Below, in pieces: positions 1-15,722 of a DNA stretch of 64,000 nt. Origin of the DNA: Candidatus Saccharimonadota bacterium (lineage in GTDB: Bacteria > Patescibacteriota > Saccharimonadia > Saccharimonadales > JAXHMH01); assembly GCA_034521515.1 (NCBI GenBank), contig JAXHMH010000002.1, positions 344,379 to 408,378 on the forward strand. The letters are read 5' to 3'. The position numbers and the translations under genes are program-made. The notes under the pieces are model-generated. The model had not been told where the DNA came from. It ran no database searches and was given only the letters and a program-made list of their open reading frames with translations. Within the stretch, counting starts at the first letter, position 1, and each line of letters begins with the position of its first letter.

Positions 1-416
1 TTGGTGGCTTCTGGCTCACCTTGGCTCAGCATATACTTAAACCCGCCGAATATAACCATCGCGACCGCCACCAAACCGGCTATCCGCAAAATTATCTCAA
101 AAACCGCCAGTAATACACGTCCAGCAGTGGCTCCAACGTCTGTATTCCCATCTTTATCAGTCGGCAATGTTAGCGAGCAGCCTTCGATTTCGCCTTCTTG
201 CGAGCCATCCAGATATTCATACTCTAGATATTCATACCAGGTAGGGAAGCTAAAAAACCCACCACCCGACGCACACTCACCAGATGCGGCTGATGAGTCT
301 GTGCCAGATTCATTATTATCGGCATTTACAACATTAGCCGGTAAGATGACCAACGCAAAAAACATAATAAAAACAAGCACCCAGGCTAAATAATTCGCTT
401 TGAAGGAATTAACCAC
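1..416 (-). CDS. Partial (3' end runs off window) small secreted membrane protein, VirB2/TrbC-pilin-like; paralog of the adjacent gene
   Basis: Absent from the ORF track because it is incomplete. Reverse-strand translation from GTG at 416-414 (AGGAGG 5 nt upstream) gives MVNSFKANYLAWVLVFIMFFALVILPANVVNA (signal peptide), then GECASGGGFFSFPTWYEYL. A hydrophobic helix follows, LLAVFEIILRIAGLVAVAMVIFGGFKYMLSQGEPEA, matching IGGIQYSMARDNPQA of the 409..1098 product. The listed + ORF 1..393 is its antisense shadow. Confidence 0.6.
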   Translation of the reverse strand, partial: MVNSFKANYLAWVLVFIMFFALVILPANVVNADNNESGTDSSAASGECASGGGFFSFPTWYEYLEYEYLDGSQEGEIEGCSLTLPTDKDGNTDVGATAGRVLLAVFEIILRIAGLVAVAMVIFGGFKYMLSQGEPEAT

Positions 417-1098
417 CGCTACCTCCTTGGAATAATCCACCCGGCACTAACCATTGAAGTATTGCAAACATCGCAAAGAATAGTACCAGCGCCAGCACAG
501 CATTAAATATTCTCTGACGTGCCGCAGCAACTGCTTGCGGATTATCACGTGCCATAGAGTACTGTATACCGCCGATTGTAATCATAATCACGATCACGAT
601 ACCAACCAAAGCAGAAAGACCGTTGATGAACGTCAACAGATAACCCATTATTGGACAGCTGTCCGGGTCAAGACCATCCCTACAGTTTGTATTGAGACTT
701 CCGTCCTGTCTTGCTAGTTGTTGTGTGCGCTCTTCTCTGGTGGTAACACCCTGACATTCGAGGTCACTCCGTCGGTCATCAGGGCTACAGGAGTCTATAA
801 CAGATTCTATATACGCTGTTTCGCTTATTTCTTGTGGCTGCCTATTACCTAAAGCTATCTCAGTTGCCATTTCAAGGCTATCAATCCTGTAATATTTTCC
901 GTCTTCCAGTCCATCGTACCCAGCTTCAGAACATAAACTCGCCGTGTAATTATCACCTGAGCTGCTGCGCCAAGCACACTTCGCTGGATCAGCAGCACTA
1001 ACATCACCTACGTCTATAAGTGGTACCCCGACGCTAACAGCCATAAAGACAACCGCCAAAGCTACATATTTTATGTGTTTATATTTTTGCTTGAACAT
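409..1098 (-). CDS. Secreted membrane protein, VirB2/TrbC-like pilin candidate
   Basis: Signal peptide MFKQKYKHIKYVALAVVFMAVSVGVPL and a Cys-containing ectodomain. The C-terminus has two hydrophobic helices separated by a charged loop (IVIVIMITIGGIQYSMARDNPQAVAAARQRIFNAVLALVLFFAMFAILQWL), the VirB2/TrbC topology. It sits in a T4SS-like gene context. Confidence 0.5.
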   Translation of the reverse strand: MFKQKYKHIKYVALAVVFMAVSVGVPLIDVGDVSAADPAKCAWRSSSGDNYTASLCSEAGYDGLEDGKYYRIDSLEMATEIALGNRQPQEISETAYIESVIDSCSPDDRRSDLECQGVTTREERTQQLARQDGSLNTNCRDGLDPDSCPIMGYLLTFINGLSALVGIVIVIMITIGGIQYSMARDNPQAVAAARQRIFNAVLALVLFFAMFAILQWLVPGGLFQGGSGG

Positions 1099-1213
1099 TT
1101 GTCATTACTATATCCTCACATCTCTCAAAAGACAAGGCTTACTCATAAATACAATGGGGTAGACACAAGCGTTTTCATGTGGTATAATACACAAAATCCT
1201 TTGCGTAAGTTTT

Positions 1214-2293
1214 TTGTTAATGAAGGATGACAGGATCGAAAGGAAACTAACCATGAATAATCTACCAAAAGAAAACATACCAGAAGAACAAGGCGAATTG
1301 TTTAATGCTGCGCCCAATACCGAGGGCACGGGTACTGATTATCACATCCCTGAGACACGGAATGGTATTGCTACGAATGAAGCTACGCTCCTGGCCAACG
1401 ATATTAATGACTCCGACACAACTAATCGAAAAGCTGAAACGATGGAAGGCAAGGAAAGGAAAGACTATGAATCTAACCTAGGTTCAATACCAGAGTCAAA
1501 TGAACAAAAGGTAAAAAACAAAAAACCGACAAGCTGGAACCGTATGCTTGGCGCAGGGGCAGCCTTAGCGCTTGTCGCAGGGGGAGCTTTTGCAGGAAAG
1601 TCCTTGTTATCTGACGAGCGCAGCGAGACAAATGGAGATAACGCTACTGCAGACTTATCCCAAGACGTGAGTCCAGAAGACTTGCGATTCAATGGATACA
1701 CCCCTTCCGTTGCAGAATTTCCCGGCTCTGAGTATCTCACTGAAGAAAACATGGAGATATACAACAACCCAGAGATAGATGACTTGGTTGATAGGTATAA
1801 TCTACGTAAAGTATCGTTTGAATATAGCGAATACGGAAACACGGATCTAGCCGACTATGCGTGGCGTCACCAACATCCAAATCAATATGTTGACCTATCG
1901 TCACTAAGTCAAAACGGCGTTAACGAAGCCGAGGTACAAGAACTTGCCCCTATTTACCTCCACAACCATATCGTAGCCCAAAATATTGACAATGACTCCA
2001 AAGTATGGAATGTTCCCGATTTCGGATACATCACCCCCCGAACTCACCTCTTCCTAGCATCAGCCACAACATTCGAAAATCCACCCACCGTTACTACAAA
2101 TAGCGACAAGTCTATAGAGCTATCGTTCTCCGGCTTAGACATACAAGCAACTAATATTGAAAAGATCCGACCGCTGGAAACCATAGGAAACACTGGACCA
2201 AGATCCTGGACTATGGACTTAACAATAGGGATAGACCCGGAGACCGGTAAGCCAGTGTACCTACGGCATGATGCTGAAGAAGTAAAATCATAG
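1214..2293 (+). CDS. Hypothetical bitopic membrane protein of the T4SS-like locus
   Basis: Long ORF with a single hydrophobic segment (MLGAGAALALVAGGAFAG) after a charged N-terminus, then a ~230-aa C-terminal domain. This is the topology of VirB8-like subunits, but no motif was recognised. ATG 1253 (MNNLPKEN) is an alternative start. Confidence 0.45.
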   Translation: MLMKDDRIERKLTMNNLPKENIPEEQGELFNAAPNTEGTGTDYHIPETRNGIATNEATLLANDINDSDTTNRKAETMEGKERKDYESNLGSIPESNEQKVKNKKPTSWNRMLGAGAALALVAGGAFAGKSLLSDERSETNGDNATADLSQDVSPEDLRFNGYTPSVAEFPGSEYLTEENMEIYNNPEIDDLVDRYNLRKVSFEYSEYGNTDLADYAWRHQHPNQYVDLSSLSQNGVNEAEVQELAPIYLHNHIVAQNIDNDSKVWNVPDFGYITPRTHLFLASATTFENPPTVTTNSDKSIELSFSGLDIQATNIEKIRPLETIGNTGPRSWTMDLTIGIDPETGKPVYLRHDAEEVKS

Positions 2294-2357: not shown

Positions 2358-5132
2358 ATGAAACGAGTCTGGCTACTCTTAGCAATGTTTTTCGTTGCTG
2401 CTATTTTTCAACCTCTTTTCGTGTATGCAATGGATGTGCGTCCACTGGATCAAGCCCAAGTCCCTTCTGGAATCGCGCCTCGCGGAGATACTGGAAATCA
2501 GCTGGCCTTTACTGGTAATGGGCTCACTTTTAATATTATTAACCGTGCGGTAATTGAAGTTGAAGTAGACAATTCCAGTGACCAAGTCTGGACTGGCGTA
2601 GAGACGAGCTCTAGCACCATCGCCAATGTGGTTGGCGGTAGACTTATACGTTCACACCATCACCGTGATCGCTCCCCTAGTAGAGACTTAACTCACTACG
2701 TACTAGATAATTCTACTGATGGCTACGGATCCAAAGGGTATACGAGATATACTGCAATCCGAGACGTTAATGCACTGACAACTAGTTCTGCTGACTTGAG
2801 CGAGAGATGGAGGAGCCTTTCAGACCAAGATATAGTAGATTCATTCGATGGCTCTTGGGCGCAAATTATATCAACGTACGAAAGAATACCGGATCCGGTA
2901 AGAGACGGGTGTCAGCTTACTGTACACGGGCGAGGAGACCTCCATCCTGGTCTAGGTTTGACAAACGCAACTGACGACACCCCAGAATTGCCAGTTGCAT
3001 GGGCGTGCAACGCTGATAGAATTTTCGAGATAACCAACGCGTTAAATAACCTAGAGAATTACAATGTAACACACGAGGCTAACGATGACGGTACGACACT
3101 TGCCATCGTTTTCCCAGAAAACGACGCATCACGCGACTCATTTGTGTATTGCGACGACAATCAGTATGCCCTTGAGAGCTGTGAGAACCCTCGCGGCAAC
3201 TGGATTATAGATGGTCACAACCCTGACGACTTCATGAAAGACTCCAATGTGCCTGTAACCGTAACAAACGGGAGCCAATCATTCCCCATGTCAGTAGCGG
3301 GGAACGAATCAGAATCCTCTACACATATAGGTGGTGGAGGTTCATCGGATCCAGACCAAGACTCCTGTGAATCAGCTGGTAATTTGTCATGGATACTTTG
3401 CGGTTTAGTCCATATGACTGGAGGTGCTCTTAACTGGGTATCTGGCCAAGTTGAGACGCTGCTTGACGTCCCTGAAGAGCGCTATCGTCATGAGGGTATA
3501 CAACAATCGTGGACACTCGTCCGTAATCTTGCTTATATATTGCTCATTCCAGCTATGCTCATCATGGTTATTAGCACTGCGCTTGGTTTTGACTTCGTCA
3601 GCTCCTACACCGTAAAAAGTGCTTTGCCAAGAATGGTAGCGGCAACAATACTGATTGCGCTGTCATGGGAGTTGACTGGGTTTATGATTGCTGTTGTACA
3701 TGCTATAGGCCAGGGTATTGCTGGACTCATATTATACCCGTTCCCAGACGCAGCAACTGAACTTTCCAATATCGTTAGCATTACAACTGGTGGAGCATTA
3801 ACTGTTGGGGTTATTGCTGCCGTTGCTGTAGCTGGCGGTCTGTCAATAATACTATCGTTCCTCGGCTCAGCACTGCTTATAATATTTATGGTATTCATGT
3901 TCCTGGTGGCTCGAGAGATGATGATTTTGGCACTTATCATTGTCGCCCCGCTGGCAATCATAGCCTGGATTTTCCCGGGGCTTAACAAGTTATGGAGTAC
4001 CTGGTGGGGATATTTCTATAAACTATTGTTTATATATCCCGTAATTATGGCAATGTTAGCAATGGGGCTCGTATTTGCCCACATGCTAGACGATGCCCAA
4101 ACTACCGGAGGAGCCGCAGGCGAAGCCCAGAACGCCCTTATCCCACTATTTCAAATTGCTGCAGTAGTTATACCGTTTGCACTTATACCGTTGGCGTTCA
4201 AACAAGCCGGGGGTGCAATGGGAAGCTTAGCTAGTGCCGTAGATCAGAGAAGGCAAGGCGTAGAAGGCAGACTCAAAAAACAACGCGGCGCCAAGGCCGC
4301 CGAAAACTTTGCCAAAACACAAAATTTCAGCCGCTTCAAGGGAGCTAACAGAATATCTAGGGGGGCAAATAGCCTGCTAGGATATACCTCTAATGCCGGT
4401 AAGGCGGGTGTAAATCCACGCAAGTGGAAAAGAAAGCTAAGCACAGTCGCTTCAGATGCATCAATTGCACAGCATGAAGCAATGCTTAAGGATGAAGGTT
4501 ATGAGCCGTGGAAAGGTAACGACGGGCTCAATAAAGCTGCGTCATCAACAAACAATGCTAGGGAGCTAAGAAAAGCACTTATTGCATCGGGTGATTACAA
4601 AGGACCTAACGCTGCTGCAAATCTAAACAGAGACGTTGAACGTGTTGAAGCTATGCGCCAGAAATATGGTAATACGGCACTCAAGCAAGCTGCATGGGTA
4701 CAAGCAATTTCCGGTGGTACTGCATTCAAAGGAACTACTGATGCCTGGGAGGCAGCTGGTAAAATTGCAAACGGTGACGATGCCGTGCTCGCTAAGCTCG
4801 TTGCTCAAGGTCGTAGTGCAGCCATGGGAGCCGGAAGAATCGACCAGGGTGGTGCAGGTTTTATGGACACTATGAAAGTCGCGCAGTCATATTATGAAGA
4901 CCCTGGGTATCGACCTGAGGATGCTGATGCAACTCACGCAGCAAATGTCATTAAATCTCAAGGCCCAGGATCTCTAGCACATGCAAGCATGAAACCTACT
5001 GCAATCAAGAATCTTGCCCCGGCTTTCCAGAAACGCATTGAGGGAGCAACAAAACAGGGCGACAGAGAGACTGCTCAAGCATTGGCATCAGCCGCTGGAT
5101 CACTGACATTGGCACGTCGCCGTGCTTACTAG
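2358..5132 (+). CDS. Large polytopic membrane protein, VirB6/TrbL-like candidate
   Basis: Signal peptide (MKRVWLLLAMFFVAAIFQPLFVYA), ~330-aa ectodomain, about 8-9 hydrophobic helices between aa ~340 and 620, and a ~300-aa soluble C-terminal region. The architecture and position next to PrgI-like/VirB4 genes fit VirB6-type channel subunits. No catalytic motif is seen. Confidence 0.45.
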   Translation: MKRVWLLLAMFFVAAIFQPLFVYAMDVRPLDQAQVPSGIAPRGDTGNQLAFTGNGLTFNIINRAVIEVEVDNSSDQVWTGVETSSSTIANVVGGRLIRSHHHRDRSPSRDLTHYVLDNSTDGYGSKGYTRYTAIRDVNALTTSSADLSERWRSLSDQDIVDSFDGSWAQIISTYERIPDPVRDGCQLTVHGRGDLHPGLGLTNATDDTPELPVAWACNADRIFEITNALNNLENYNVTHEANDDGTTLAIVFPENDASRDSFVYCDDNQYALESCENPRGNWIIDGHNPDDFMKDSNVPVTVTNGSQSFPMSVAGNESESSTHIGGGGSSDPDQDSCESAGNLSWILCGLVHMTGGALNWVSGQVETLLDVPEERYRHEGIQQSWTLVRNLAYILLIPAMLIMVISTALGFDFVSSYTVKSALPRMVAATILIALSWELTGFMIAVVHAIGQGIAGLILYPFPDAATELSNIVSITTGGALTVGVIAAVAVAGGLSIILSFLGSALLIIFMVFMFLVAREMMILALIIVAPLAIIAWIFPGLNKLWSTWWGYFYKLLFIYPVIMAMLAMGLVFAHMLDDAQTTGGAAGEAQNALIPLFQIAAVVIPFALIPLAFKQAGGAMGSLASAVDQRRQGVEGRLKKQRGAKAAENFAKTQNFSRFKGANRISRGANSLLGYTSNAGKAGVNPRKWKRKLSTVASDASIAQHEAMLKDEGYEPWKGNDGLNKAASSTNNARELRKALIASGDYKGPNAAANLNRDVERVEAMRQKYGNTALKQAAWVQAISGGTAFKGTTDAWEAAGKIANGDDAVLAKLVAQGRSAAMGAGRIDQGGAGFMDTMKVAQSYYEDPGYRPEDADATHAANVIKSQGPGSLAHASMKPTAIKNLAPAFQKRIEGATKQGDRETAQALASAAGSLTLARRRAY

Positions 5133-5358
5133 CCCTCAACTTGCTGAAGTTTTTGCAGATAATGTAATGGGCTACGAAGTTGAAGGGTATGGAACCGTTA
5201 AGGACATGATTGAGGCCTACAGAAGTGACGATAACTTTAATCAGATGAGGCGAGAATATGAAAGACAGGCAACAGCTGATGCAGTAAGAAATTCAGCAAA
5301 TCCGCCAGCCGAACCCGGAGCTGGGCCACCTACAGCACCGCAAGATAGGCTTTCTTAA
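5122..5358 (+). CDS. Small hypothetical protein (possibly a frameshifted tail of the preceding gene)
   Basis: GTG start overlaps the stop of 2358..5132 by 11 nt; alternative ATG at 5167. No recognisable domain. It ends just before the SD of the ancestral prgI-like start. Confidence 0.3.
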   Translation: MLTSPQLAEVFADNVMGYEVEGYGTVKDMIEAYRSDDNFNQMRREYERQATADAVRNSANPPAEPGAGPPTAPQDRLS

Positions 5359-5373
5359 AAGGAGAAGGAAAGA

Positions 5374-5426
5374 TGGCAACATATAAAGTAATATCAGATA
5401 TCTAAGCAGAGTATAAACTGCTCGGA
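5374..5426 (+). pseudogene. Duplicated 5' fragment of the PrgI-like gene (remnant start left upstream of an inserted TA cassette)
   Basis: These 53 nt match 6245..6297: the first 30 nt are identical, followed by 4 mismatches. One mismatch (GAA to TAA at 5404-5406) stops the reading frame after 10 codons. The fragment is preceded by a strong SD (AAGGAGAAGGAAAG) that the intact copy lacks. Confidence 0.8.
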
Positions 5427-5518
5427 CAACGGGCTTAGTACAGTAAAACTATCCGAGTAACCTTTTGCAACAACTCGTAGATTAAACACCTAAATATGTA
5501 TATGAACGGAAGTTTAAC

Positions 5519-5558
5519 TTGACTTTAAGTTTAACTCGAGTTAAACTTGAACCATATG
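5519..5558 (+). promoter_or_regulatory. Promoter/operator of the Phd-VapC operon, leaderless configuration
   Basis: TTGACT (5519-5524), 17-nt spacer, TAAACT (5542-5547), then ATG at 5556, 8 nt after the -10. There is no SD. An 18-bp perfect palindrome GTTTAACTCGAGTTAAAC (5529-5546) overlaps the spacer and the -10. Confidence 0.6.
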
Positions 5559-5822
5559 AAAACTATATCTGCTAAAGAGCTGCGTGACAACCTTGGCGAA
5601 ATAACTAAACGGGTGAGCGCCGGCGAACATATCTACGTAAGCTACAGAAATAAACTGTCTTTCAAGCTAGAACCAGCGACCCCTCCAAAGCCCGCGCGTA
5701 AAAAGCTGGCTGGCCTAGAAGCCTTTTTGGCGGCACCAAAGAAGCCTTCTCAGCACAATCCGGACAAACCCGCAAAAGAAATATATCACGAGCTTCTGGA
5801 TGAAAAATATGGCTCCAAGTAA
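5556..5822 (+). CDS. Type II antitoxin, Phd/YefM family
   Basis: The N-terminus MKTISAKELRDNLGEITKRVSAGEHIYVSYRNKLSFKLEP is typical of Phd/YefM. It is small and overlaps the downstream PIN toxin gene. The ORF-track TTG at 5547 is less likely than ATG 5556. Confidence 0.75.
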   Translation: MKTISAKELRDNLGEITKRVSAGEHIYVSYRNKLSFKLEPATPPKPARKKLAGLEAFLAAPKKPSQHNPDKPAKEIYHELLDEKYGSK

Positions 5823-6198
5823 GCTGTTTTTGGATGCCAATATCCTAATAGAGATTCTAGAATCCCGGCCAAAACATAAAAAAGCGGAAAAACTGTTGCT
5901 TTCAGGTGCGGGGAATTTGCATATCTCTACCCTGACATGCCACATTGCTGCTTATGTGTCCCGAAAAAGAATTGGTCTGGAAGTACTCGAACAATTCTTA
6001 GGCGACTATATTTGGCTAGAGCTGAAACCTGAGGACATAGCTTGGGCATTTGATAACCGCCGTGACAATGACTTTGAAGACGCCCTGCAGATTGCCATGG
6101 CTGTAAGAAGTGGTTGTAGCGTGTTTTATACCCTAGATAAGCAACTCGTCAATGCCTATGCTACCTTGCCCACCCTGGAAGTAAAGTTACTCAAATAG
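5800..6198 (+). CDS. vapC: Type II toxin, PIN-domain VapC family
   Basis: PIN acidic-residue pattern: LFLDANILIE near the N-terminus, DFEDALQIAMA, and TLDKQL near the C-terminus. 132 aa, with a 23-nt overlap with the antitoxin gene. Confidence 0.75.
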   Translation: MKNMAPSKLFLDANILIEILESRPKHKKAEKLLLSGAGNLHISTLTCHIAAYVSRKRIGLEVLEQFLGDYIWLELKPEDIAWAFDNRRDNDFEDALQIAMAVRSGCSVFYTLDKQLVNAYATLPTLEVKLLK

Positions 6199-6212
6199 CA
6201 TAAGTATTTACT

Positions 6213-6240
6213 CAGCACTCTGTACTGTGTACTCTGTACT
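6213..6240. repeat. Heptad tandem tract (cagcact ctgtact gtgtact ctgtact)
   Basis: Four consecutive 7-nt units lie directly between the TA cassette and the ATG (6245) of the PrgI-like gene. Confidence 0.75.
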
Positions 6241-6244
6241 TACA

Positions 6245-7366
6245 ATGGCAACATATAAAGTAATATCAGATATCGAAGCAGAAGATAAACTGCTGGGGCC
6301 GCTGACACTCAGACAGTTTATCTATGCATGTATTGTCGTGGTATCGGGTTATATTGCATTTCGCCTTATATTTGTTAGTTGGCTGCTAGTATTGCCGCTA
6401 CTGCCAATCATGATATTTTTTGGTTTATTGGCGTTTCCATTTACCAAAGATCAACCGGCGGAAGTCTGGTTATTGGCGCGTTTGCGGTTTTTCTTAAAAC
6501 CACACTTACGAATCTGGAGCCAAGACGGCATACAAGAGCTAGTATCTGTTACTGCCCCTAAATTACCAGAAAAGCAGCTTACCAAAGACTTTTCCCAGAC
6601 CGAAGTAAAAAGCCGTCTAAGGGCTTTGGCAGATACAATTGATAGCCGTGGATGGGCAGTCAAGAACGTCAACGTTAATCTAACTGGCCAACCATCCGCC
6701 GCAAACGGTGCATCAGATCGGCTCGTCCAGGCCACGTCAACGCCTCAACCGGTTGCCGATATCGATATTGGAGCATCCGATGACATGCTGGATGAACAGT
6801 ATAACCCCCGCGCACAGTCTCTCGATAAACTCATAAACGCCTCCGGTCAAGCGCACCGGCAGCAAATAGTGCAACAGATGAAGCAGGCTCCCCAACAGAC
6901 GCAGGAACCGGCAGCTAATTACTGGTTTATGAACCAACCATCCGGACAACCGCAACCAGGCTACAACACCGGTAAAGGTACCGTAATCACGCCAGGAAGC
7001 AACGACCAAAAACCCTCAAACCAACAACCAACCACCCAAGAGGAACAAGCCTTGCTCGAGAAAATCCATAAATCAAAACAGCAGCCACAACCTGGCTCCA
7101 GTCATATCAAGACTATCCAACCCATCGATCAGAATAACCCCAATCCTGCGCAAACAACACAACCGCAACCAGAAGCTCCTAATCAAGCCAACACCCCACA
7201 ACAAGCTACTAACGAACATCCCCAAACCAGCCCCCAAAAAACACAGCCCGATCCAGCCCTATTAGAACTTGCCCATAACGACGATCTGAATGTCGAAACC
7301 ATAGCCCGCCAGGCCAACAAGCACAACGACGATGACCCGGAGGAAGTGGTAGTATCGCTACATTAA
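6245..7366 (+). CDS. PrgI-family (VirB3-like) T4SS membrane protein with long Q/P-rich C-terminal tail
   Basis: N-terminus MATYKVISDIEAEDKLLGPLTLRQFIY followed by two hydrophobic helices, the PrgI-family pattern. It lies immediately upstream of VirB4-like genes. The C-terminal ~180 aa are Q/P/N-rich low complexity. ATG 6245 is preferred over track GTG 6227 because the duplicated fragment at 5374 begins at the same ATG. Confidence 0.55.
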   Translation: MATYKVISDIEAEDKLLGPLTLRQFIYACIVVVSGYIAFRLIFVSWLLVLPLLPIMIFFGLLAFPFTKDQPAEVWLLARLRFFLKPHLRIWSQDGIQELVSVTAPKLPEKQLTKDFSQTEVKSRLRALADTIDSRGWAVKNVNVNLTGQPSAANGASDRLVQATSTPQPVADIDIGASDDMLDEQYNPRAQSLDKLINASGQAHRQQIVQQMKQAPQQTQEPAANYWFMNQPSGQPQPGYNTGKGTVITPGSNDQKPSNQQPTTQEEQALLEKIHKSKQQPQPGSSHIKTIQPIDQNNPNPAQTTQPQPEAPNQANTPQQATNEHPQTSPQKTQPDPALLELAHNDDLNVETIARQANKHNDDDPEEVVVSLH

Positions 7367-7368
7367 GC

Positions 7369-7403
7369 TGAAGTACTTAGTACATAGTCCTCAGTACCAA
7401 GTA
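7369..7403. repeat. Heptad tandem tract (gtac-type: gaagtac ttagtac atagtcc tcagtac caagtaa)
   Basis: Five 7-nt units lie between the PrgI-like stop and the 3' end of the four-helix-bundle gene. Confidence 0.65.
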
Positions 7404-7418
7404 AAAGCCACTCAACTT

Positions 7419-7769: not shown

Positions 7770-7801
7770 TAATTCATTCTACCATCATTTAGTTACTAAC
7801 A

Positions 7802-7836
7802 TGTACTAGGTACTAGGTACTGTGTACTCCGTACTT
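7802..7836. repeat. Heptad tandem tract (tgtacta ggtacta ggtactg tgtactc cgtactt)
   Basis: Five phase-locked 7-nt units lie upstream of the four-helix-bundle gene. The CTAG-containing units give stops on both strands. Confidence 0.8.
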
Positions 7837-7898
7837 GGAGGCTTTGTTCTCTCGCGATTTTCCTCTATACTTAAGCTTATAATCTCCTCTTTCTGAGG

Positions 7899-8783: not shown

Positions 8784-10699
8784 TGCTCGGCAAGAAGAAA
8801 TCCGATACTCAAACTGATCCGGTCGCCCTAGCGCAAGCACAACGTGCCCGTGAGCAGCAGGAGGTTACTGCCGCTTTCCAAAAGGGCATAACGGCACTGC
8901 GCGATTTTATTGCTCCTGCTTCACTGGAGTTTAAGGGTACTCACTTCCAAATCGGCACTCGTTTTGCCCGTACGTTTTACGTTTACGGATACCCACGCCA
9001 AGTATTTACCGGCTGGATATCCAGTATGGTCAACCTCGATGAGGTGATGGATTTGAGTATATTTATCTATCCGGTCGAGAGCCAGGTAATACTAGAAAAC
9101 TTGCGCAAAAAAGTTTCCCAGATGGAGGCTGGCATCCAGATCGATGCCGAGAAAGGGCGTGTCCGCGACCCCGGCAGGCAGGCCGCCATCCAAGATGCCG
9201 AAGAAATGCGCGACAAATTACAGGTAGGCGAAGAGCGTTTTTTCCGTTTCGGATTTTATTTCACAGTTTACGGTGGCAGCATGGACGAGCTTGAATTTGT
9301 CACCCATAAGGTCGAGTCAGTTCTCGGTCAACAATTAATTTACTCAAAACCTGCCAGCAGCCAACAAGAACAAGGTCTTAACAGTACATTGCCGCAGTTC
9401 AGCGATCAATTACAAATCAGGCGAAACTTCAGCACCGGCGCGTTAAGTACCAGCTTTCCATTTACCAGCGCAGACCTTACACAGGATGAGGGCATCTTGT
9501 ATGGCATAAATATGCACAATTCCGGGCTAGTTATTTTTGACCGTTTCTCTCTAGAAAACGGCAACTCGGTGGTGTTTGCAAAATCCGGTGCCGGCAAATC
9601 GTTCACTGTTAAATTAGAGGCGCTGCGTAGCATGATGTTTGGTACTGAAGTATTTATTATTGACCCGGAAAACGAGTACCAGCGCATGGCAGAAGCCGTT
9701 GGTGGAGCTTATGTCCGGCTTAGTCTTAACTCTGGCACTCGACTTAACCCATTTGATTTACCACAAGTCATAGACACCGACGAGGCGGATAACGCTTTAC
9801 GCAGCAACCTCATAACACTTCATGGGCTATTAAGATTAATGATGGGTGGAGCGCAGACGCAGATGCTTGAGGGCACCGCAACAACTATGCCCGCCCTCGC
9901 ACCATCAGAAGAAGCCGACCTAGACGCCGCGTTAATTGAAACCTATGCCAAGGCCGGTATTACCAACGACCCACTCACCCATAAATCACAGCCCCCTACC
10001 ATAAACGACCTATATGACACATTGCTACACATGGGTGGCAGCGGCCCGCAACTTGCTCAACGCCTCCGTAAATACACTACCGGTACATTCGCCGGCATAT
10101 TCAGCCAACAATCCAACGTAGATATCAACAACCAGTTTGTAGTGTTCAACATCCGTGACCTAGAGGACGAGCTGCGCCCCGTGGCTATGTATATTGTCCT
10201 AAACTACATCTGGAACAAAACCAAATCCGACCAAAAAAGGCGCATGCTAGTAGTTGATGAGGCCTGGCAGCTCATGAAATATGAAGATTCTGCTAACTTC
10301 TTGTTTAGCCTGGCAAAACGCGCTCGCAAATATAACCTTGGTATCACCACGATAACTCAGGACGTAGAGGACTTTATGGGATCGCGCATGGGTCGGGCTA
10401 TTGTGGCCAACGCCAGTATGCAGATACTACTCAAGCAGTCTCCATCGGCTGTAGATGTACTAAGTGACGTGTTCAAACTTACCAGCGAAGAAAAGAAACG
10501 CCTCAGTCAGTTCCCGGTCGGCCAAGGTCTGTTTTTTGCCGGGCAAAACCATGTCCATATCCAGATTGCCGCTAGCCCAACCGAAACCGGTTTAATCACG
10601 ACCAATCCGCAACAAGTACAAGCCGCCGAACAGGGCGGTGAGCTTAATCAGCCCCAAGGTACAATTGACCTTCAAAATCGCCTAACACCAGGCGTATAA
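8783..10699 (+). CDS. virB4: VirB4-like T4SS ATPase (middle and ATPase domains)
   Basis: Walker A is FAKSGAGKSF and Walker B is RMLVVDEAWQLM. The VirB4-type middle region is FARTFYVYGYPRQVFTGWISSMVNLDEVMDLSIFIYP. Also present is RKYNLGITTITQDVEDF. Confidence 0.85.
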   Translation: MLGKKKSDTQTDPVALAQAQRAREQQEVTAAFQKGITALRDFIAPASLEFKGTHFQIGTRFARTFYVYGYPRQVFTGWISSMVNLDEVMDLSIFIYPVESQVILENLRKKVSQMEAGIQIDAEKGRVRDPGRQAAIQDAEEMRDKLQVGEERFFRFGFYFTVYGGSMDELEFVTHKVESVLGQQLIYSKPASSQQEQGLNSTLPQFSDQLQIRRNFSTGALSTSFPFTSADLTQDEGILYGINMHNSGLVIFDRFSLENGNSVVFAKSGAGKSFTVKLEALRSMMFGTEVFIIDPENEYQRMAEAVGGAYVRLSLNSGTRLNPFDLPQVIDTDEADNALRSNLITLHGLLRLMMGGAQTQMLEGTATTMPALAPSEEADLDAALIETYAKAGITNDPLTHKSQPPTINDLYDTLLHMGGSGPQLAQRLRKYTTGTFAGIFSQQSNVDINNQFVVFNIRDLEDELRPVAMYIVLNYIWNKTKSDQKRRMLVVDEAWQLMKYEDSANFLFSLAKRARKYNLGITTITQDVEDFMGSRMGRAIVANASMQILLKQSPSAVDVLSDVFKLTSEEKKRLSQFPVGQGLFFAGQNHVHIQIAASPTETGLITTNPQQVQAAEQGGELNQPQGTIDLQNRLTPGV

Positions 10700-10703: not shown

Positions 10704-10731
10704 TTATGAGCTATGAGTGTTGAACTATGAG
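10704..10731. repeat. Heptad tandem tract (ttatgag ctatgag tgttgaa ctatgag)
   Basis: Four 7-nt units lie directly after the virB4 stop. A TGA in each unit gives stops in all three + frames. An inverted copy of the unit (ctcataa) occurs at 10945-10951 on the far side of the truncated gene. Confidence 0.65.
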
Positions 10732-10951
10732 CAAAGCAGCAGAAGGTTACGCCAAACAAATCGACCGATCTTTTAGGCGCTTTTTGCTCACTGCCAAAGG
10801 GTCAGCTTCAAAAGTGCAGTCTATGCTTATACTGGCCGATGACATACAATATACATCAGAGGAGCAACTAGGATCACGCTTCACGTTAGCGAAAGAGGCG
10901 GCAAAGATTATAGGCGGACTTAAAAATAAACTCCATTCTCAAAACTCATAA
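10727..10951 (+). pseudogene. Truncated four-helix-bundle protein gene (C-terminal ~70 aa only)
   Basis: AEGYAKQIDRSFRRFLLTAKGSASKVQSMLIL aligns with residues ~50-116 of the 7419..7769 product. About 45 N-terminal residues (helices 1-2) are missing, and only 27 nt separate it from virB4. Confidence 0.7.
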
Positions 10952-10963: not shown

Positions 10964-13789
10964 ATGGCAGTAGAAGATAAAGAAAAATCCGGATCAAAAG
11001 AGGAAATCACGCCAGATTTTTTGCGTGAGGCTACTGGCATTAACCCCGAGCAAGAACAGACTATGGATCGCGAGGCACACAGCGGCGCCGCCAAAGACAT
11101 TGCCGAACGTGAAGGTATAGCCGGCACACAGAAAACTACCGAGGCCGACAAAGCGGAGAGTGACCGGATTGGCACTCCTGACGGTCAAATTGGCGGCGGT
11201 TACAAAGCTAATGCAAAGAAAAAACGTAAGTTTTGGACCAAGAAAAAAGGTGTCGGGGCTGGAATTGCTGGTTTAGCAGTATTCGGTGGCATGGGTCTAT
11301 TCGGTATAATGAGTGGTCCTTTTGGCGTCATGCATTTTGGCCAACTACTTAATCTCAATTTTTTACCCGGAAATTCTATTTTGACTAGCCGAGCGGGCAA
11401 TTTATATAAGTGGTCACAATGGTCTGACCAACCTGAAATGAGACGGTTGGGTGCAATCGGACGCCAATCCATGCGCGGTATCGATGCAAAATTTGAAAGA
11501 GCAGGTTATAGAAAAGTTGTCGGGTCAGGCGGGCGTCTTCATGCCGTTATTGCCCCAAACAACGAAAGAATACCAGTAGATCCACCCGGTACAGGCAAGT
11601 CTGCAGCTAAACAGAACTGGCGTAGAGTTGTTAGGCGAGTTAATTTGGTAAGCACAAAGCGTATTGGCCCTGTTGGATCGCGGTTTGCAACAAGAGCTTA
11701 CGGCATGAACATGGGAAACATACTAAACCCGAGGCGCACGTTACAGGATTGGCAGGCAAAAAGAACCCGAGTTAGAGAGGCTAGGCAGGCAAATAAAACA
11801 GGTACACAACCAGCAGACGTTAGGACTACTGCAGACGACGCCGACGTCGACCGTGCGCCCGGAGATCCAGACCCAAATGAGGGTACCGGAAGACAAAATA
11901 CTACCTCAAGACGAAACACAGCAAGAGCAATAAAAACGGCCTCTGGCATTGCGCTTGGATGTATTGCGATTGAACTTGCCGATCCTGAAGGTGTAGCCCA
12001 TAAAACAAACGTGATTCTTCCGTTAATACGTGGTGCTGGCCGATACTTAACTATCATGGGTCAATTACAGTCGGGTAACGTTGACCACGAGGAGCTCGGC
12101 ATTGTATATCAAGAGCTTGTTGCTGACAACGAAGACGGGGAGCCAACCTCCGCTTTTGCCTCAGCTCCAATGCAACATCTGGCTGGACGCGCCCCTACTG
12201 GTAGAGATATACCACCTGAAGCCCACCCGGTACGTTCAAAAAACTTTTTCGAAAATATCATGGGTGGTGTTTGGAGCAGTATAGAAGGAGTCCAAGGTCC
12301 TATCAGTGCTGGATGCCAACATATCTCCAGCACTGTCGGGCAAATTATTGGCGGCGGTATAGATATAGCTTTATGCGCGGTTAGCGGTGGAGCAACCTGT
12401 GTCGCAAGAGGCGCTATCCAGACTGCGCTTATCGGAGGAGGTATGCACGTACTAGTCAATATATTAGCCGGTGAACAGACTGCTGCTTGCTTTAGTGAAA
12501 CTGTAGAAGAGCTTGACGAGGAAGACACAGAAGTCGCTGGCAACACCCCTGTTGGCGGTGATATTGTAGGTGCCTGCGCAGGGTATGGCGCCCGCATATT
12601 TGCCAATGAGAACATGCTTAACTTTGGTGGCACACAATTAAGCGACGAGGAGTTTGCTGCTGTTCAGCGTTATAGCAATGAATTGGAAACTGAGCGCTTC
12701 CAAAACCAAAGCCTATTCGCAAGATTATTTAGCCCTTATGAACACAAATCCTTGTTCTCTAATGTCGCTCGTAATACATTGGTTTTTGCTTCTGGTAATA
12801 GTGGCCATAAATTCGCACACTCGCTACTGACAGCCCCCTTTGGCATAACGCAAAACTTACTCCAACCATTTAATTCGGCAGTTTACGCGCAGGACAATCG
12901 CACGTTTGATTGGGGCGGTTATCCAGCATACGGTTTTAGTATTGATGAACTGGATGATGAACGGTTTGATAACCCGTTTGAAAACGCTTCTATCGTCGCC
13001 GATAGACTTGATGATAGCGACGTAAAAGATAAAATTGAGCGCTGTTTTGCTCTTGAGCTGCAAGACGATTACTCCTTAAAAAGGATAGATGATGAGGTTA
13101 GGTCAGTACATTCACTTGATGGCTGCGACGACCAGGACGAAGTTTGGAAGCGTATAAGGTTTTATATACTAGACACCCAAATTGCGGAGACTATGAATTG
13201 TTATGAAGGCGATCATACCAGTTGCCGAACAATCGGTTTCGATGTCGCAAACGCTGAATCCGAACAATCCACCTCGCGACCAGCTCCCGACGAAGCTATT
13301 GTGGGAGATACTTCTGACCAACCCTGCGCATCAGGCACAGATGACCTCGGAACTGCAACCGGTTACAATAACGGGGACGCTTATACTATCCGGCTGTGCT
13401 CCATACCCGGTTTTACCTCTGAATGGCCGGGTGAAGAATTCATAAGAATAAACTCAACGGTATCAGGGAATTGGCTAAACTTATTCCAAGCTGCCCGAAC
13501 AGACGGTATAGATCTCCAAGCCGTCAATTCCTTCAGAAGCATGGAACGCCAGCAAGTGCTTTACGATCGATATCTGGCAGGCCGCGGGAACTTGGCCGCT
13601 CAACCAGGACACTCTAACCATCAGCTTGGTTTTGCAGTCGATATCGTTATGGATGACCGTGGTTTAAATCTAGAACAGTGCCGAGCTAATGCTGCACAAT
13701 ATCCAATATTTAGCTGGCTGAGAGATAACTCTTCCGACTTTGGCATCGAAGCAAATGTTCCAGATGAATGCTGGCATTGGTCGTCATGA
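10964..13789 (+). CDS. Large membrane-anchored protein with C-terminal M15B (VanY-type) D,D-peptidase domain
   Basis: Charged N-terminus, hydrophobic segment GAGIAGLAVFGGMGLFGIMSGPFGV and a large uncharacterised middle. C-terminal motifs are SFRSMERQQVLY, HSNHQLGFAVDI and DECWHWS, which are zinc D-Ala-D-Ala carboxypeptidase signatures. Confidence 0.7.
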   Translation: MAVEDKEKSGSKEEITPDFLREATGINPEQEQTMDREAHSGAAKDIAEREGIAGTQKTTEADKAESDRIGTPDGQIGGGYKANAKKKRKFWTKKKGVGAGIAGLAVFGGMGLFGIMSGPFGVMHFGQLLNLNFLPGNSILTSRAGNLYKWSQWSDQPEMRRLGAIGRQSMRGIDAKFERAGYRKVVGSGGRLHAVIAPNNERIPVDPPGTGKSAAKQNWRRVVRRVNLVSTKRIGPVGSRFATRAYGMNMGNILNPRRTLQDWQAKRTRVREARQANKTGTQPADVRTTADDADVDRAPGDPDPNEGTGRQNTTSRRNTARAIKTASGIALGCIAIELADPEGVAHKTNVILPLIRGAGRYLTIMGQLQSGNVDHEELGIVYQELVADNEDGEPTSAFASAPMQHLAGRAPTGRDIPPEAHPVRSKNFFENIMGGVWSSIEGVQGPISAGCQHISSTVGQIIGGGIDIALCAVSGGATCVARGAIQTALIGGGMHVLVNILAGEQTAACFSETVEELDEEDTEVAGNTPVGGDIVGACAGYGARIFANENMLNFGGTQLSDEEFAAVQRYSNELETERFQNQSLFARLFSPYEHKSLFSNVARNTLVFASGNSGHKFAHSLLTAPFGITQNLLQPFNSAVYAQDNRTFDWGGYPAYGFSIDELDDERFDNPFENASIVADRLDDSDVKDKIERCFALELQDDYSLKRIDDEVRSVHSLDGCDDQDEVWKRIRFYILDTQIAETMNCYEGDHTSCRTIGFDVANAESEQSTSRPAPDEAIVGDTSDQPCASGTDDLGTATGYNNGDAYTIRLCSIPGFTSEWPGEEFIRINSTVSGNWLNLFQAARTDGIDLQAVNSFRSMERQQVLYDRYLAGRGNLAAQPGHSNHQLGFAVDIVMDDRGLNLEQCRANAAQYPIFSWLRDNSSDFGIEANVPDECWHWSS

Positions 13790-15006
13790 TAAAAAAACAT
13801 TTCATTATACTGGTTGCAGCCGTTGTACTTGTCTCAAGTTTCATGTCACAAAGTGTGTTGGCGATTTCTGATGAGCAAAGAAGAATACTAGAATCCAATA
13901 TACTTTTCTACAACGTTGATGCTACCGACAGTATTGCGGACTCATGCACACTCCTTGTTGCCGGAAAAGGTGACATATTTAACGAAACTCAGTTGGAACA
14001 AATTGAGCGCAACCGTCTCGTATACGAAGAGGCTGGACAAGAGGCGGATGTCCCTTGGGAGATGTTGGCGGTTATACACCTGAAGGAGTCTGGGCTAGGT
14101 CGAGAAAACCCTAGTAATGGTCAAGGTGTTTACCAATTCGTCAATAAAAACGGCGGGCCATATCCACCAGGCCCGGTTAATGAGGCTGAGTTTGTTCGTC
14201 AAACAAAACTGGCAGCTCAATTTGTCCGCTCTAAGTTACCATCAAACCTTGAACATAACCGAAATTTAACATACTCAGGGGCTTCATCTGACACTATAAA
14301 AGATACGTTCTTCAGTTATAACGGCAGGAGCAGTGGTTATGCTGACCAGGCTGAAGCTTTGGGGTTTGATCGGGAGCGACAGCCATTTGAGGGATCACCA
14401 TATGTCATGAATAAGGCAGACCCCCAGCGAGATCCAGAAATTAACACTACCACCTGGGGACAAGTCAAGGAAGACTTTGGACCAATTGAATATCCAGCAA
14501 ATAATTTTTACGGCGCCTACGTAAGCTATGCGGCACTAGCTGGCACCGGTACAGACAACTGCGACCAAAATCTCGGTATTAGGGTTGTTGAGATAGCCCA
14601 AGAAGAGCTTGCTTTGGGTGCAAACGAAGCAGATAATTCCTACTTTAAATATACAGAAGGTATAGAGGCTGCTTGGTGTGCATATTTTGTAAGCTGGGTA
14701 TTCGATAAAGCTGGAGCTCCTTTCGAAGGCGGTCCACTTCCTCAAGTTTCAACTATGCAAGCCTATGCAAGAGACCGAGGTATGTATTACGAGTCAGACG
14801 ACAGCACTTTCACACCGCAACCAGGTGATATTGTTGTCTACAAGGAAGGGGTGCTGCCTTTTGAATCGCATGTTAATATAGTCATCTCTTACAATGCGGG
14901 TACTGAAATAATTACGACAATTGGCGGTAATGAGTCCGATACAATACTAGAACTAACAAACGAACGGTCACTACCTTCAATTAGTGGCTTTATAAGGATT
15001 CAGTAA
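13786..15006 (+). CDS. Secreted peptidoglycan hydrolase with C-terminal CHAP domain
   Basis: Signal peptide MIKKHFIILVAAVVLVSSFMSQSVLA, with ATG 13786 overlapping the upstream stop as ATGA. CHAP motifs are AAWCAYFVSWVFDKAG (Cys), GDIVVY, SHVNIVISY (His) and GGNESD. The N-terminal half (PWEMLAVIHLKESGLG) may be a second, lysozyme-like module, but this is uncertain. Confidence 0.7.
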   Translation: MIKKHFIILVAAVVLVSSFMSQSVLAISDEQRRILESNILFYNVDATDSIADSCTLLVAGKGDIFNETQLEQIERNRLVYEEAGQEADVPWEMLAVIHLKESGLGRENPSNGQGVYQFVNKNGGPYPPGPVNEAEFVRQTKLAAQFVRSKLPSNLEHNRNLTYSGASSDTIKDTFFSYNGRSSGYADQAEALGFDRERQPFEGSPYVMNKADPQRDPEINTTTWGQVKEDFGPIEYPANNFYGAYVSYAALAGTGTDNCDQNLGIRVVEIAQEELALGANEADNSYFKYTEGIEAAWCAYFVSWVFDKAGAPFEGGPLPQVSTMQAYARDRGMYYESDDSTFTPQPGDIVVYKEGVLPFESHVNIVISYNAGTEIITTIGGNESDTILELTNERSLPSISGFIRIQ

Positions 15007-15008
15007 TT

Positions 15009-15722
15009 ATGTATAACGTAAATAAAAAACATATTATCCTGGCAATCTTAGTGCTGTCCGCGCTACTGTTAATATTTGGAATAAAAATATACTTGGATAA
15101 CCAACGTTTCCAAGTCTTCTCGACTACTCCATCACTTACACAAACCGTCGCAACCAGCACTTCTGTAATAAAGCTTGACTTTAATAAACCGCTTTCAGAT
15201 GATTCTTCCTATAACAGAACGCTTATTAAGGATCTTGATGAGCTAGCATATATACATGATGTTGAGCGAGCTGGTGATTCACTGCTGGTTAGGCTGGGCA
15301 CACTCAACTCCGGACAAGAATACACTGTTACATTTAATGATATTATTTCAGCTGATGGTGATGTTATATCGGACTTAAGTTATACATTTTTTGTTGACTA
15401 TATTCCGTACGATCGACTATCTGAAGCACAGAAAGCTTTGGAGCTACAAGAAACTGATCGAGGGAGTGAAGATGACCCAGTGCTTAACTATGTACCACAC
15501 TCAACATTACGGTATGAAATTAATCCTATACAGAGAACCAACAACGACGGTGTATATTCGCTTGGCTTGGACATAAAAATTATCCTTTCTAACGCCGACA
15601 GGTCTAACCAAGATGCCGCTATCGCTACATATAAAGAAATGGCTATGGATTACTTGCGTTCTGTTGACATCAACCCAGACGATTATGATATTTACTACCG
15701 TATTATTGAACCGACTCTTTAG
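15009..15722 (+). CDS. Membrane-anchored hypothetical protein, possible Ig-like ectodomain
   Basis: N-terminal TM (HIILAILVLSALLLIFGI), then TPSLTQTVATSTSVIKLDFNKPLSDDS ... GQEYTVTFNDIISADG, which resembles SbsA/Big-type Ig-like domains. It is the last gene of the + strand cluster, and its 3' end overlaps the recF 3' end convergently. Confidence 0.4.
   Translation: MYNVNKKHIILAILVLSALLLIFGIKIYLDNQRFQVFSTTPSLTQTVATSTSVIKLDFNKPLSDDSSYNRTLIKDLDELAYIHDVERAGDSLLVRLGTLNSGQEYTVTFNDIISADGDVISDLSYTFFVDYIPYDRLSEAQKALELQETDRGSEDDPVLNYVPHSTLRYEINPIQRTNNDGVYSLGLDIKIILSNADRSNQDAAIATYKEMAMDYLRSVDINPDDYDIYYRIIEPTL

Follow-up and report, generated by a model that had tools for sequence, protein, structure and literature searches.

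The DNA analysed here is a 64-kb stretch, henceforth the window, of a metagenome-assembled genome (MAG) of the Saccharimonadales, and its first 15,722 nucleotides carry a cluster of genes which resemble those of the type IV secretion systems (T4SSs) of Gram-positive bacteria and which abut recF. A first-pass annotation, made from the letters of this DNA, had named genes for pilin, bitopic, polytopic, PrgI and VirB4 proteins and for M15 and CHAP hydrolases, and all of these types were found in their places when families were assigned by scanning the ten main proteins of positions 1-15722 against the Pfam and NCBIfam profiles. The same annotation described the genes as co-directional, which is true of the main genes between 1253 and 15722, all of them on the + strand, and untrue of the pilin genes, which lie on the opposite strand as a divergent array.

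For comparative purposes we searched one genome per species with the VirB4 protein of the window and retained the best 80 of 542 matches. These 80 relatives are MAGs of Saccharibacteria or Saccharimonadales, bar a few with the generic titles 'bacterium' or 'Patescibacteria group' and one contig labelled Candidatus Dormiibacterota; gene order and gene counts in the 80 loci were obtained by tblastn of the window proteins. The contig labelled Dormiibacterota (L041, DATLRC010000014.1) shows the T4SS-recF-dnaN-dnaA order of the Saccharimonadales and a VirB4 identity of 86%, and it is probably a mis-binned Saccharibacteria contig.

Gene content of the locus

The first gene of the pilin array (409..1098, - strand) encodes a VirB2-like protein of 229 residues, with matches to the T4SS_pilin family (PF18895, E 2.4e-7) and to the pilin-like conjugal transfer proteins (NF045849, E 7e-10). 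A second VirB2-like gene (1..416, - strand) runs off the left edge of the window, which retains the first 138 codons of a gene for 171 residues; a signal peptide and a C-terminal hydrophobic helix can be seen in its translation. That the cluster continues past this edge had been noted at the first reading, and it is confirmed by a 2.6-kb Logan contig (L001), which extends the sequence by 0.9 kb and contains the remainder of the second pilin gene (with a PF18895 match), two further pilin genes of 97 and 137 residues and the start of a fifth gene. The array of window and contig together holds at least five sequence-divergent pilin genes, at least three of them beyond the edge, and relatives have five to six. 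A metagenome search with a pilin query for a leftward extension returned nothing.

Between the pilin array and the + strand genes lies a divergent intergenic region (1099..1252) with a promoter-like site on the + strand (1160-1188; TAGACA-17-TATAAT plus a TG extension), which agrees with the consensus at 11 of 12 positions and is the best such site in 17 kb, as a consensus match only. The first + strand gene (1253..2293; the mechanical open reading frame (ORF) starts at 1214) encodes a lineage-restricted bitopic membrane protein of 346 residues (NCBI U5K77_01755). No Pfam or NCBIfam profile matched this protein and a word-indexed search of 5.8 billion proteins found no homologue; a full HMMER pass over 1.84 billion representatives gave two clear relatives (P0011 and P0012, of 43% and 35% identity) and a marginal one (E 3.5e-4). 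The genes of both clear relatives (L085, 764-1732; L086, 2264-3406) are placed between a pilin array and a large + strand gene, which in L085 encodes a protein 47% identical to the VirB6-like protein of the window and is a confirmed orthologue. Since both relatives occupy the same place, the gene belongs to the locus and is not a foreign insertion, and the possibility of an unrelated ORFan could be ruled out. To judge from these homologues, the bitopic protein is a rare and fast-evolving member of the locus and a candidate for a lineage-specific factor of host interaction, host specificity or assembly. An AlphaFold2 model from the single sequence reached a predicted local distance difference test (pLDDT) score of 32.

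The next gene (2358..5132, + strand) encodes the polytopic membrane protein of 924 residues (U5K77_01760), in which a variable N-terminal ectodomain (residues ~25-335) is followed by a conserved transmembrane core (~337-640) and a helical C-terminal domain, conservation being limited to residues 337 onward. A precomputed match to PF19590 (TrbL_3) is attached to the database entry of identical sequence (P0001) and to each of its 8 homologues. In our own Pfam and NCBIfam scans nothing was matched at E <=0.01, and the top hit at a permissive threshold was the TrbL/VirB6 family PF04610 (E 0.11, residues 427-605), a signal which recurs in 11 of 42 orthologues with a best E of 2e-4. On these grounds, the precomputed PF19590 match and a weak but consistent PF04610 signal, we accept the protein as an extended VirB6/TrbL-like component, a call that was not independently reproduced. 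The first-pass annotation had proposed that the VirB6 and PrgI assignments be checked against profiles: PrgI passed, with PF12666 above threshold, and VirB6 passed by way of the precomputed family, our own PF04610 match staying at the E given above. The precomputed PF19590 and PF26593 (TraC-like) matches were not returned by the local Pfam-A scan, for P0003 and the VirB6-like protein of the window in the one case and for its TrsD-like protein in the other. The local copy being blank for P0003 too, the library appears to be without the PF19590 model, and the two sources appear to be different Pfam releases. A profile search of PDB sequences with the VirB6-like protein gave only chance matches to haemagglutinin HA2 (E ~0.1), and a scan of genome contigs with the same query found no relatives, whereas the VirB4 query succeeded. 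The stop codon of this gene is overlapped by a candidate ORF of 78 codons (5122..5358, + strand), with no family match and a homologue in one relative (L033).

The PrgI/VirB3-like gene (6245..7366, + strand, probably from the ATG at 6245; the mechanical start is a GTG at 6227) encodes a membrane protein with a long Q/P-rich tail. Its residues 12-96 match PF12666 (E 8e-10) with 39.5 bits against a cutoff of 27, and orthologues of 37-54% identity are present in 77 of the 80 relatives. The two genes that follow overlap by 1 nt. The first of them (7899..8783, + strand, likely start ATG 7917) encodes a TrsD-like protein (NF041427, E 1e-5), a homologue of the VirB4 N-terminal domain, whose counterparts in relatives carry the precomputed PF26593 match; the second (8783..10699, + strand) encodes a VirB4 ATPase of 638 residues, of the mating-pair formation (MPF) type MPF-FATA of monoderms, which scores 367.7 bits against a cutoff of 325 with the CD1110 family (NF045971) and E 7e-28 with PF19044. 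Its Walker A (GAGKS) and Walker B (VVDEAW) motifs are intact, and its best relative of solved structure is 4AG5 from the Firmicute Thermoanaerobacter (E 3e-48), TrwK of R388 being matched at 4e-7. On the CD1110 model of VirB4 the TrsD-like ORF covers positions 3-144 and the 638-residue ORF positions 181-733, so that the pair tiles a full-length Firmicute VirB4.

The first-pass annotation had taken the two ORFs for a VirB4 in two parts. This claim did not hold: TrsD and VirB4 are encoded separately in 80 of 80 relatives, with stop and start codons overlapping by 1 nt in 51, and a frameshifted or split VirB4 is ruled out by this. Judged from the sequences compared, the two-ORF arrangement is ancestral. 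VirB4 itself is 83-90% identical to those of the 80 Saccharimonadales species and, judged from this identity, very likely falls inside the monophyletic clade of Patescibacteria.

Downstream of virB4 are two wall hydrolases. The slot directly behind it is taken by a gene (10964..13789, + strand) for a membrane-anchored protein of 941 residues with a C-terminal VanY/M15 peptidase domain (PF02557, E 7e-18, residues 828-933), a full-length orthologue of a protein of 977 residues in the same slot of locus L084. The second slot is taken here by a secreted hydrolase with a C-terminal CHAP domain (13768..15006, + strand; PF05257, E 7e-10), and by a Phage_lysozyme2 protein in L082-L084 (L082, 15524-16834; L084, 20706-21890). 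The two kinds of protein have in common only a signal peptide and a short N-terminal motif (LSxxQxxxxxSNxLF), which suggests an exchange of catalytic domains behind a shared targeting module. The last gene of the cluster (15009..15722, + strand) encodes a bitopic protein with an Ig-like Big_5/CopC domain (PF13205 and PF04234, E 5e-6) and is present in only 2 of the 80 relatives; its 3' end is convergent with that of recF, and the 20-nt overlap of the two (15703-15722) bears out the first description of where the locus ends.

Position of the locus and DNA-processing genes

To the right of the cluster lie recF (15703-16785), dnaN (17211-18302) and dnaA (18663-20030), all on the - strand, and a cluster of four DnaA-box-like sites (20088-20212), and the cumulative GC skew has its minimum at ~18-20 kb. 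The adjacency of recF, dnaN and dnaA, the DnaA boxes and the skew minimum therefore place the locus close to the origin, a chromosomal position which the first-pass annotation had already recognized. The same order is found in the relatives: pilin (-), VirB6-like (+), PrgI, TrsD, VirB4, a variable region of 6-10 kb, recF (-), dnaN (-) and dnaA (-), and it recurs in essentially all those with enough flanking sequence. By count, TrsD and VirB4 were found in all 80, PrgI in 77, recF in 69, dnaN in 64, the VirB6-like protein in 59, dnaA in 52 and the pilin in 43, the lower numbers being due to contig ends and to the divergence of surface proteins. The locus thus occupies the same site beside recF-dnaN-dnaA in species representatives of the Saccharimonadales, which answers the question, raised with the first annotation, of whether its position is conserved; and the recurrence of order and site in 80 species representatives fits vertical inheritance rather than a mobile island.

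Median identity to the relatives, in which some bias is to be expected from the ranking of the 80 loci by VirB4 similarity, is 85.6% for VirB4, 75.3% for DnaA, 74.3% for TrsD, 70.5% for DnaN and 54.5% for RecF, and falls to 43.9% for PrgI, 35% for the pilin, 30% for the VirB6-like protein and 27% for the M15 protein. The cytoplasmic motor VirB4, taken to be under purifying selection, is more conserved than DnaA and DnaN in these loci, which were picked by VirB4, while the exposed parts of the machine diverge fast.

Profile scans of the ten main proteins of the cluster matched no family of coupling proteins, relaxases or integrases, as the first reading of these 15.7 kb had maintained. To the right, where the 37 largest ORFs of the 20-64 kb part were scanned, no type IV coupling protein (T4CP), relaxase, integrase or recombinase was found either, and the sole TraG-P-loop/AAA_10 protein in view is VirB4. 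To the left, the extension advised with the first annotation yielded 0.9 kb more of pilin genes in this genome and, in 38 relatives, no relaxase, coupling protein or integrase left of the array. The census of these left flanks comprised 135 ORFs of at least 140 residues, left of the VirB6-like gene, in which 21 families were seen: T4SS_pilin (69 ORFs), TrbC (26), HSP20 (24), Pribosyltran (9) and others in small counts or as singletons, mostly housekeeping. No relaxase (MOB), T4CP, integrase or transposase family was among them. The Pfam-annotated left flanks of three relatives likewise show pilins (5-6) followed by HSP20, phosphoribosyltransferase, TrmB, MazG, GIY-YIG and the like, with no relaxase, T4CP or integrase.

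These results bear on whether the cluster could be an integrative conjugative element (ICE), or what remains of one, whose genes for relaxase, coupling protein and integrase would lie a short way beyond the left edge of the window. The left end of the cluster is indeed out of view, and its components are homologous to the conjugative T4SSs of ICEs from Firmicutes and Mollicutes (NF045971, NF045975, NF045849, NF041427). Against an ICE speak the constant order and neighbourhood across the 80 species representatives, a VirB4 better conserved than DnaA, and left flanks with HSP20 and phosphoribosyltransferase in place of DNA-processing genes. Further, a scan of the 64-kb window found no tRNA gene (an Rfam scan of the same sequence returned nothing), inside the window the locus is not bounded by long direct repeats, and the GC content of 1-16 kb (0.44-0.48) is ordinary, inside the range of the remaining window. 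In a published census a relaxase was close to virB4 for just 15 of 2,474 virB4 genes (PMC12102498). We have rejected an ICE on the conserved site in relatives and on the census of their left flanks, and regard it as extremely improbable.

In our view, the locus is very probably a vertically inherited chromosomal T4SS of this Saccharimonadales genome and the counterpart of SEML1_0006-0019 of Southlakia epibionticum ML1. With neither relaxase nor coupling protein at the locus, it is therefore not a machine for DNA conjugation. The first-pass annotation's proposal of a non-conjugative T4SS of Gram-positive style is upheld by the conserved site and the lack of DNA-processing genes, and it agrees with published work (PMC10633639; PMC12102498).

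Several points weigh against this reading. The left flank of this genome is seen for 0.9 kb only, and a relaxase or T4CP could lie farther left in the genome itself; a distant T4CP could lie elsewhere than in the 64-kb window and flanks that were searched, and most Patescibacteria carry one according to the literature. No protein of the locus matched the VirB8, VirB9 or VirB10 families, and a VirB8-like component was not identified among them. The VirB6 call relies on a precomputed match that our own Pfam scan did not reproduce, PF04610 being below threshold, and an AlphaFold2 model of the 924-residue protein, from an alignment of 9 sequences, has a mean pLDDT of 45 and a predicted TM score (pTM) of 0.28. 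The insertion of a toxin-antitoxin cassette, described below, separates prgI from its Shine-Dalgarno sequence, and expression of prgI in this genome is not assured. Finally, the sequence data say nothing of what is transported or in which direction.

Cassettes bounded by heptad arrays

The first-pass annotation had listed a toxin-antitoxin (TA) cassette and two four-helix-bundle genes as accessory insertions. The TA cassette was confirmed and the count of four-helix-bundle genes was not, their number being three. The view that the TA and four-helix-bundle genes are accessory insertions, small cassettes placed in short spacers with the conserved genes undisrupted, is supported by the following observations.

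A 53-nt direct repeat, which corresponds to the first 53 nt of prgI, brackets the TA cassette (5373..6244, + strand, 872 bp) inserted in the 5' end of that gene; its two copies (5373-5425 and 6245-6297) are 92% identical and lie 872 nt apart. The upstream copy, part of the cassette, is a duplicated prgI start (5373-5425, + strand) with an AGGAG ribosome-binding site, and runs into a stop after 10 codons. Behind it come a Phd-type antitoxin (5547-5822, + strand; PF02604, E 4e-5) and a PIN toxin (5800-6198, + strand; PF01850, E 9e-12), and the right end of the cassette is formed by an array of heptads of the form (GTACTNN), read in the sequence at 6209-6240. The intact prgI is preceded by (GTACTNN)3, without a Shine-Dalgarno sequence, the AGGAG having stayed with the upstream copy. 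Of the 80 relatives, 1 has a homologue of the PIN toxin, and there the gene lies elsewhere.

The first four-helix-bundle cassette (7367..7845, - strand) contains a PF05635 gene (7419-7769, - strand; E 6e-35) inside inverted heptad arms at 7372-7403 (AGTACNN) and 7800-7836 (GTACTNN, five copies). The sequence GTACTNNGTACT occurs 7 times in the 64 kb against 0.08 expected, and all seven occurrences fall at three sites: one closes the TA cassette on the right, and the other two flank this gene, with their arrays in inverted orientation. When positions 7364-7845 are folded as RNA, the two arrays pair as the closing stem (minimum free energy -109.5 kcal/mol, z -3.0; flank duplex z -4.9). The second cassette of this kind (10705..10951, + strand) is decayed: a heptad array of four TATGAGC copies (10705-10732, a Tandem Repeats Finder tract) is followed by a 5'-truncated PF05635 remnant of 74 residues (10727-10951, + strand; E 8e-11), which covers profile positions 44-105 only and at whose junction an intact gene stands in locus L071. 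The third four-helix-bundle gene (16778-17158, - strand; PF05635, E 3.5e-26) lies between recF and dnaN, and a further heptad array is found at 16798-16817.

Four-helix-bundle genes are present in 9 of the 80 relatives, at junctions that vary. A tract of period 7 lies within 62 nt of 11 of 15 such genes in relatives, the heptad sequence being specific to each element, and the flanks pair with z <=-3 for 8 of 18 of these genes against 0 of 60 random controls. Some relatives carry 'empty' heptad hairpins between trsD and virB4, as does L076 (-52 kcal/mol, z -8.8), and in L060 and L071 these junctions carry other cargo, namely four-helix-bundle genes of a second subfamily and, recognized by eye from the translations, an apparent antitoxin-toxin pair and a possible transposase. 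Heptad arrays, frequently inverted and then able to pair as a long stem around the gene, flank accessory genes in loci L054, L070, L079, L009, L071 and L060, the empty hairpin being that of L076. The junctions that receive these cassettes are normally spacers of 0-30 nt in tight conserved operons (prgI-trsD-virB4, virB4-M15, recF-dnaN) and differ by species; the median spacer is 2 nt between trsD and virB4 and 22 nt between recF and dnaN, and spacers are widened only where cassettes sit.

Heptad tracts of at least 21 nt number 10 in the window (802 nt) against 0.33 in dinucleotide-preserving shuffles. A heptad tract, (CTACCAA)n, with about 7 copies at 18585-18660, occupies the end of the dnaA-dnaN spacer and reads (TTGGTAG)n in the direction of transcription; a mechanical ORF of 98 codons that spans it (18374-18670) is almost certainly not a gene. 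Far from the T4SS locus, two more TA-like pairs of small ORFs, recognized by eye (54811-55364 and 55554-56031), are separated by a composite array, (GAGACTN)n then (RATAGNT)n, which is present in three direct copies over 54412-56185. The same module is found reversed and in frame (84 nt, 31946-32029) inside an ORF resembling Wzy/O-antigen ligases (31206-32705). Most heptads carry TAG or TGA on the + strand, which yields stops in all three frames.

We tentatively propose, with less than even confidence, that the cassettes are an undescribed kind of small element of the Saccharimonadales, a small gene or pair of genes bounded by heptad arrays. No description of heptad or heptanucleotide repeats in Patescibacteria or Saccharibacteria was found in the searchable literature. 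Inverted arrays that form a stem around a PF05635 gene recall the intervening sequences of 23S rRNA, where this family of proteins was originally discovered. Were the cassettes mobile, or processed by RNase III like the rRNA intervening sequences, they would represent a novel type of element, selfish or insulating, able to enter essential operons and leave the genes unharmed. Heptad-bounded cassettes that freely colonise the spacers of an operon essential in S. epibionticum are perhaps new, and may merit a separate look.

The insertions could also be taken as signs that the whole cluster is decaying, its VirB4 split by a frameshift and its genes invaded by selfish DNA to the point of losing function. 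Many T4SSs have one VirB4 where this cluster has two ORFs, three insertions stand between core genes, the TA cassette has cost prgI its Shine-Dalgarno sequence, and one four-helix-bundle gene is itself truncated. Yet the TrsD/VirB4 split, with its coupled stop and start codons, is shared by 80 of 80 relatives; the core ORFs are all intact and of full length, the Walker motifs of VirB4 included; the insertions lie in spacers or duplicate the sequence that they interrupt, an intact prgI being retained; and similar cassettes sit at the same junctions in relatives. Decay of the cluster is largely refuted by the universal split and the intact core ORFs, and we hold it to be very unlikely.

Most of the rest of the window (23614-63182) is a large cluster for cell-surface glycan (polysaccharide, sulfation and ABC transport), with several glycosyltransferases of types GT4 and GT2, a Wzm/Wzt ABC exporter, GDP-mannose dehydratase and epimerase, and a pyruvyl transferase. 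Its sulfation genes encode sulfotransferases, an ATP sulfurylase/APS kinase, a CysQ-like phosphatase and a sulfate-type transporter. For a genome this small, a sulfated polysaccharide is unusual. A Fic protein (27510-28649), a protein of 891 residues with a GDSL-lipase domain and a lectin-domain protein were also seen, and YidC and Jag genes in the 20-64 kb part were read from their translations only.

Function and comparison with known systems

How the T4SS would be assembled, what it would carry and in which direction can be sketched from the gene identities. The divergent promoter region would part two units, a - strand array of at least five pilin genes and a + strand operon for the bitopic protein, the VirB6/TrbL channel, PrgI/VirB3, TrsD, VirB4, the M15 peptidase, the CHAP hydrolase and the Ig-like protein. 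VirB4, with TrsD and PrgI, would energise a VirB6-based translocon in a single membrane, the M15 and CHAP hydrolases would open the cell wall, the bacterium's own or possibly that of the host, and the pilins would polymerise on the surface as a tube or fibre in contact with the host bacterium. In the VirB/VirD4 system, pilus biogenesis needs VirB4 and not the coupling protein. For this reason, and because ML1 cannot do without its pilin array, we would favour as essential output a pilus or conduit in contact with the host, through which material may pass between epibiont and host. We give a pilus conduit or adhesion device that acquires host material somewhat short of an even chance, and the export of effector proteins or hydrolases into the host a distinctly lower one; transport alternatives other than acquisition or export take the remainder.

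An acquiring device might specifically be an uptake machine like ComB of Helicobacter or the archaeal Ced system, in which VirB4 and a pilus would import host DNA or RNA as a source of nucleotides for a bacterium unable to make its own. Like ComB, the locus has neither relaxase nor coupling protein, and its VirB4 weakly matches CedB (E 9e-14) and CedD (1e-6), two ATPases of DNA import in archaea. The T4SS has been proposed as a candidate route of nucleotide acquisition, comEC being dispensable and the T4SS essential (PMC11665869; PMC12857230), and a 2026 preprint describes, in another Patescibacterium, the uptake of host RNA and tubular structures, possibly T4SS pili, that may penetrate the host. 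The Ced matches, however, are far weaker than the conjugative VirB4 match (367 bits), and among the proteins of the locus none was recognised as a nuclease or as binding nucleic acids. Such a machine, which overlaps with the pilus or conduit favoured above and differs from it in cargo and direction only, seems to us rather unlikely.

Equally doubtful, in our estimate, is a translocator that exports the M15 and CHAP hydrolases, or effectors encoded elsewhere, into or onto the host to co-opt it. The operon encodes a pair of wall hydrolases, secreted or anchored in the membrane, the second slot is swapped between CHAP and lysozyme-like enzymes as expected of host-facing enzymes, and the parts exposed at the surface change quickly beside a frozen ATPase; effector delivery has also been a matter of published speculation (PMC11665869; PMC10633639). 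But most effector T4SSs need a coupling protein as substrate receptor, and none is linked here, a distant coupling-protein homologue being non-essential in S. epibionticum (PMC12102498). The hydrolases, moreover, bear ordinary signal or anchor sequences and may be VirB1-like assembly factors.

The system to which we assign the locus, the chromosomal T4SS of Patescibacteria, was published in 2023 and 2025, as a system without relaxase on which growth on host bacteria depends, and is not new. Wang et al. 2023 (Cell, PMC10633639) described in S. epibionticum ML1 an 'apparent T4SS (SEML1_0006-0019)', essential by transposon sequencing (Tn-seq), most like Gram-positive conjugative systems, with essential pilins in the cluster and without recognisable coupling or relaxase proteins, and suggested the export of proteins or some other role as possibilities. 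Quinonero-Coronel et al. 2025 (Microb Genom, PMC12102498) found VirB4 in 2,417 of 3,035 Patescibacteria genomes, as a monophyletic clade nested in MPF-FATA. In their survey TrsD is the commonest associated component, next to a PrgI-type VirB3, VirB6 and arrays of 2-11 divergent VirB2 genes; relaxases occur in 103 genomes only; T4CP homologues are mostly distant from virB4 and are non-essential in ML1; and proximity to dnaA, dnaN and rnpA is frequent and was tied to gene dosage. A 2024 perspective (PMC11665869) called the role of the T4SS 'completely unknown' and raised effector delivery or nucleotide acquisition, and a 2025 review (PMC12857230) regards the system as unique among monoderm T4SSs, required for growth and perhaps elaborating conjugative pili. 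The T4SS of Patescibacteria is the first for which a report has shown that its own bearer depends on it, and it encodes a pilus in a monoderm. The window is another instance and lends independent support, with a fixed origin site, an ATPase more conserved than DnaA, fast-evolving surface parts and no DNA-processing genes in view; the locus itself opens no new question.

Helicobacter ComB, which serves DNA uptake, Bordetella Ptl and Brucella VirB are other T4SSs that work with neither coupling protein nor relaxase and are non-conjugative (PMC12857230). Those are diderm systems, with an outer-membrane core of VirB7/9/10, whereas the VirB4 of the window is nearest to the Firmicute type (4AG5), and the lack of T4CP and relaxase is all that the locus has in common with the ComB type. 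Closer are the monoderm MPF-FATA conjugative systems (CD1110 of Clostridioides CTn2, PrgI/PrgH/PrgJ/PrgK of pCF10, TrsD of pGO1), with which it shares a VirB4 above the CD1110 cutoff, homologues of PrgI and TrsD, and membrane-anchored wall hydrolases with CHAP, as in PrgK and TraG. It differs from them in having no relaxase, coupling protein or origin-of-transfer (oriT) context, in its chromosomal position, fixed in the sampled relatives, and in its VirB2-like pilins, which are wanting there; neither an adhesin of the PrgB type nor a VirB8-like protein was recognised.

From the clade described in PMC12102498 we see no difference of substance: the locus combines an MPF-FATA VirB4 and adjacent TrsD with a PrgI-type VirB3, a VirB6 homologue and an array of VirB2-like genes, has no relaxase or T4CP close by, and lies near dnaA, dnaN and rnpA. 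The cassette insertions and heptad arrays are absent from that description. The likeness to S. epibionticum ML1, for which alone essentiality is known (Tn-seq, PMC10633639), extends to the same class of organism, a pilin array in the cluster, a set of subunits like those of Gram-positive conjugative systems, peptidase and lysozyme-type hydrolases downstream of virB4, and no recognisable relaxase or coupling protein. By its published description, ML1 differs in having a lysozyme-like second hydrolase where the window has CHAP, and the present genome adds the bitopic gene at the head of the operon, the TA cassette in the 5' end of prgI and, in the spaces that separate core genes, two four-helix-bundle cassettes. 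The gene numbers 0006-0019 of the ML1 cluster suggest, as far as numbering goes, a place near the start of its chromosome, comparable to the site beside recF-dnaN-dnaA occupied by the locus described here.

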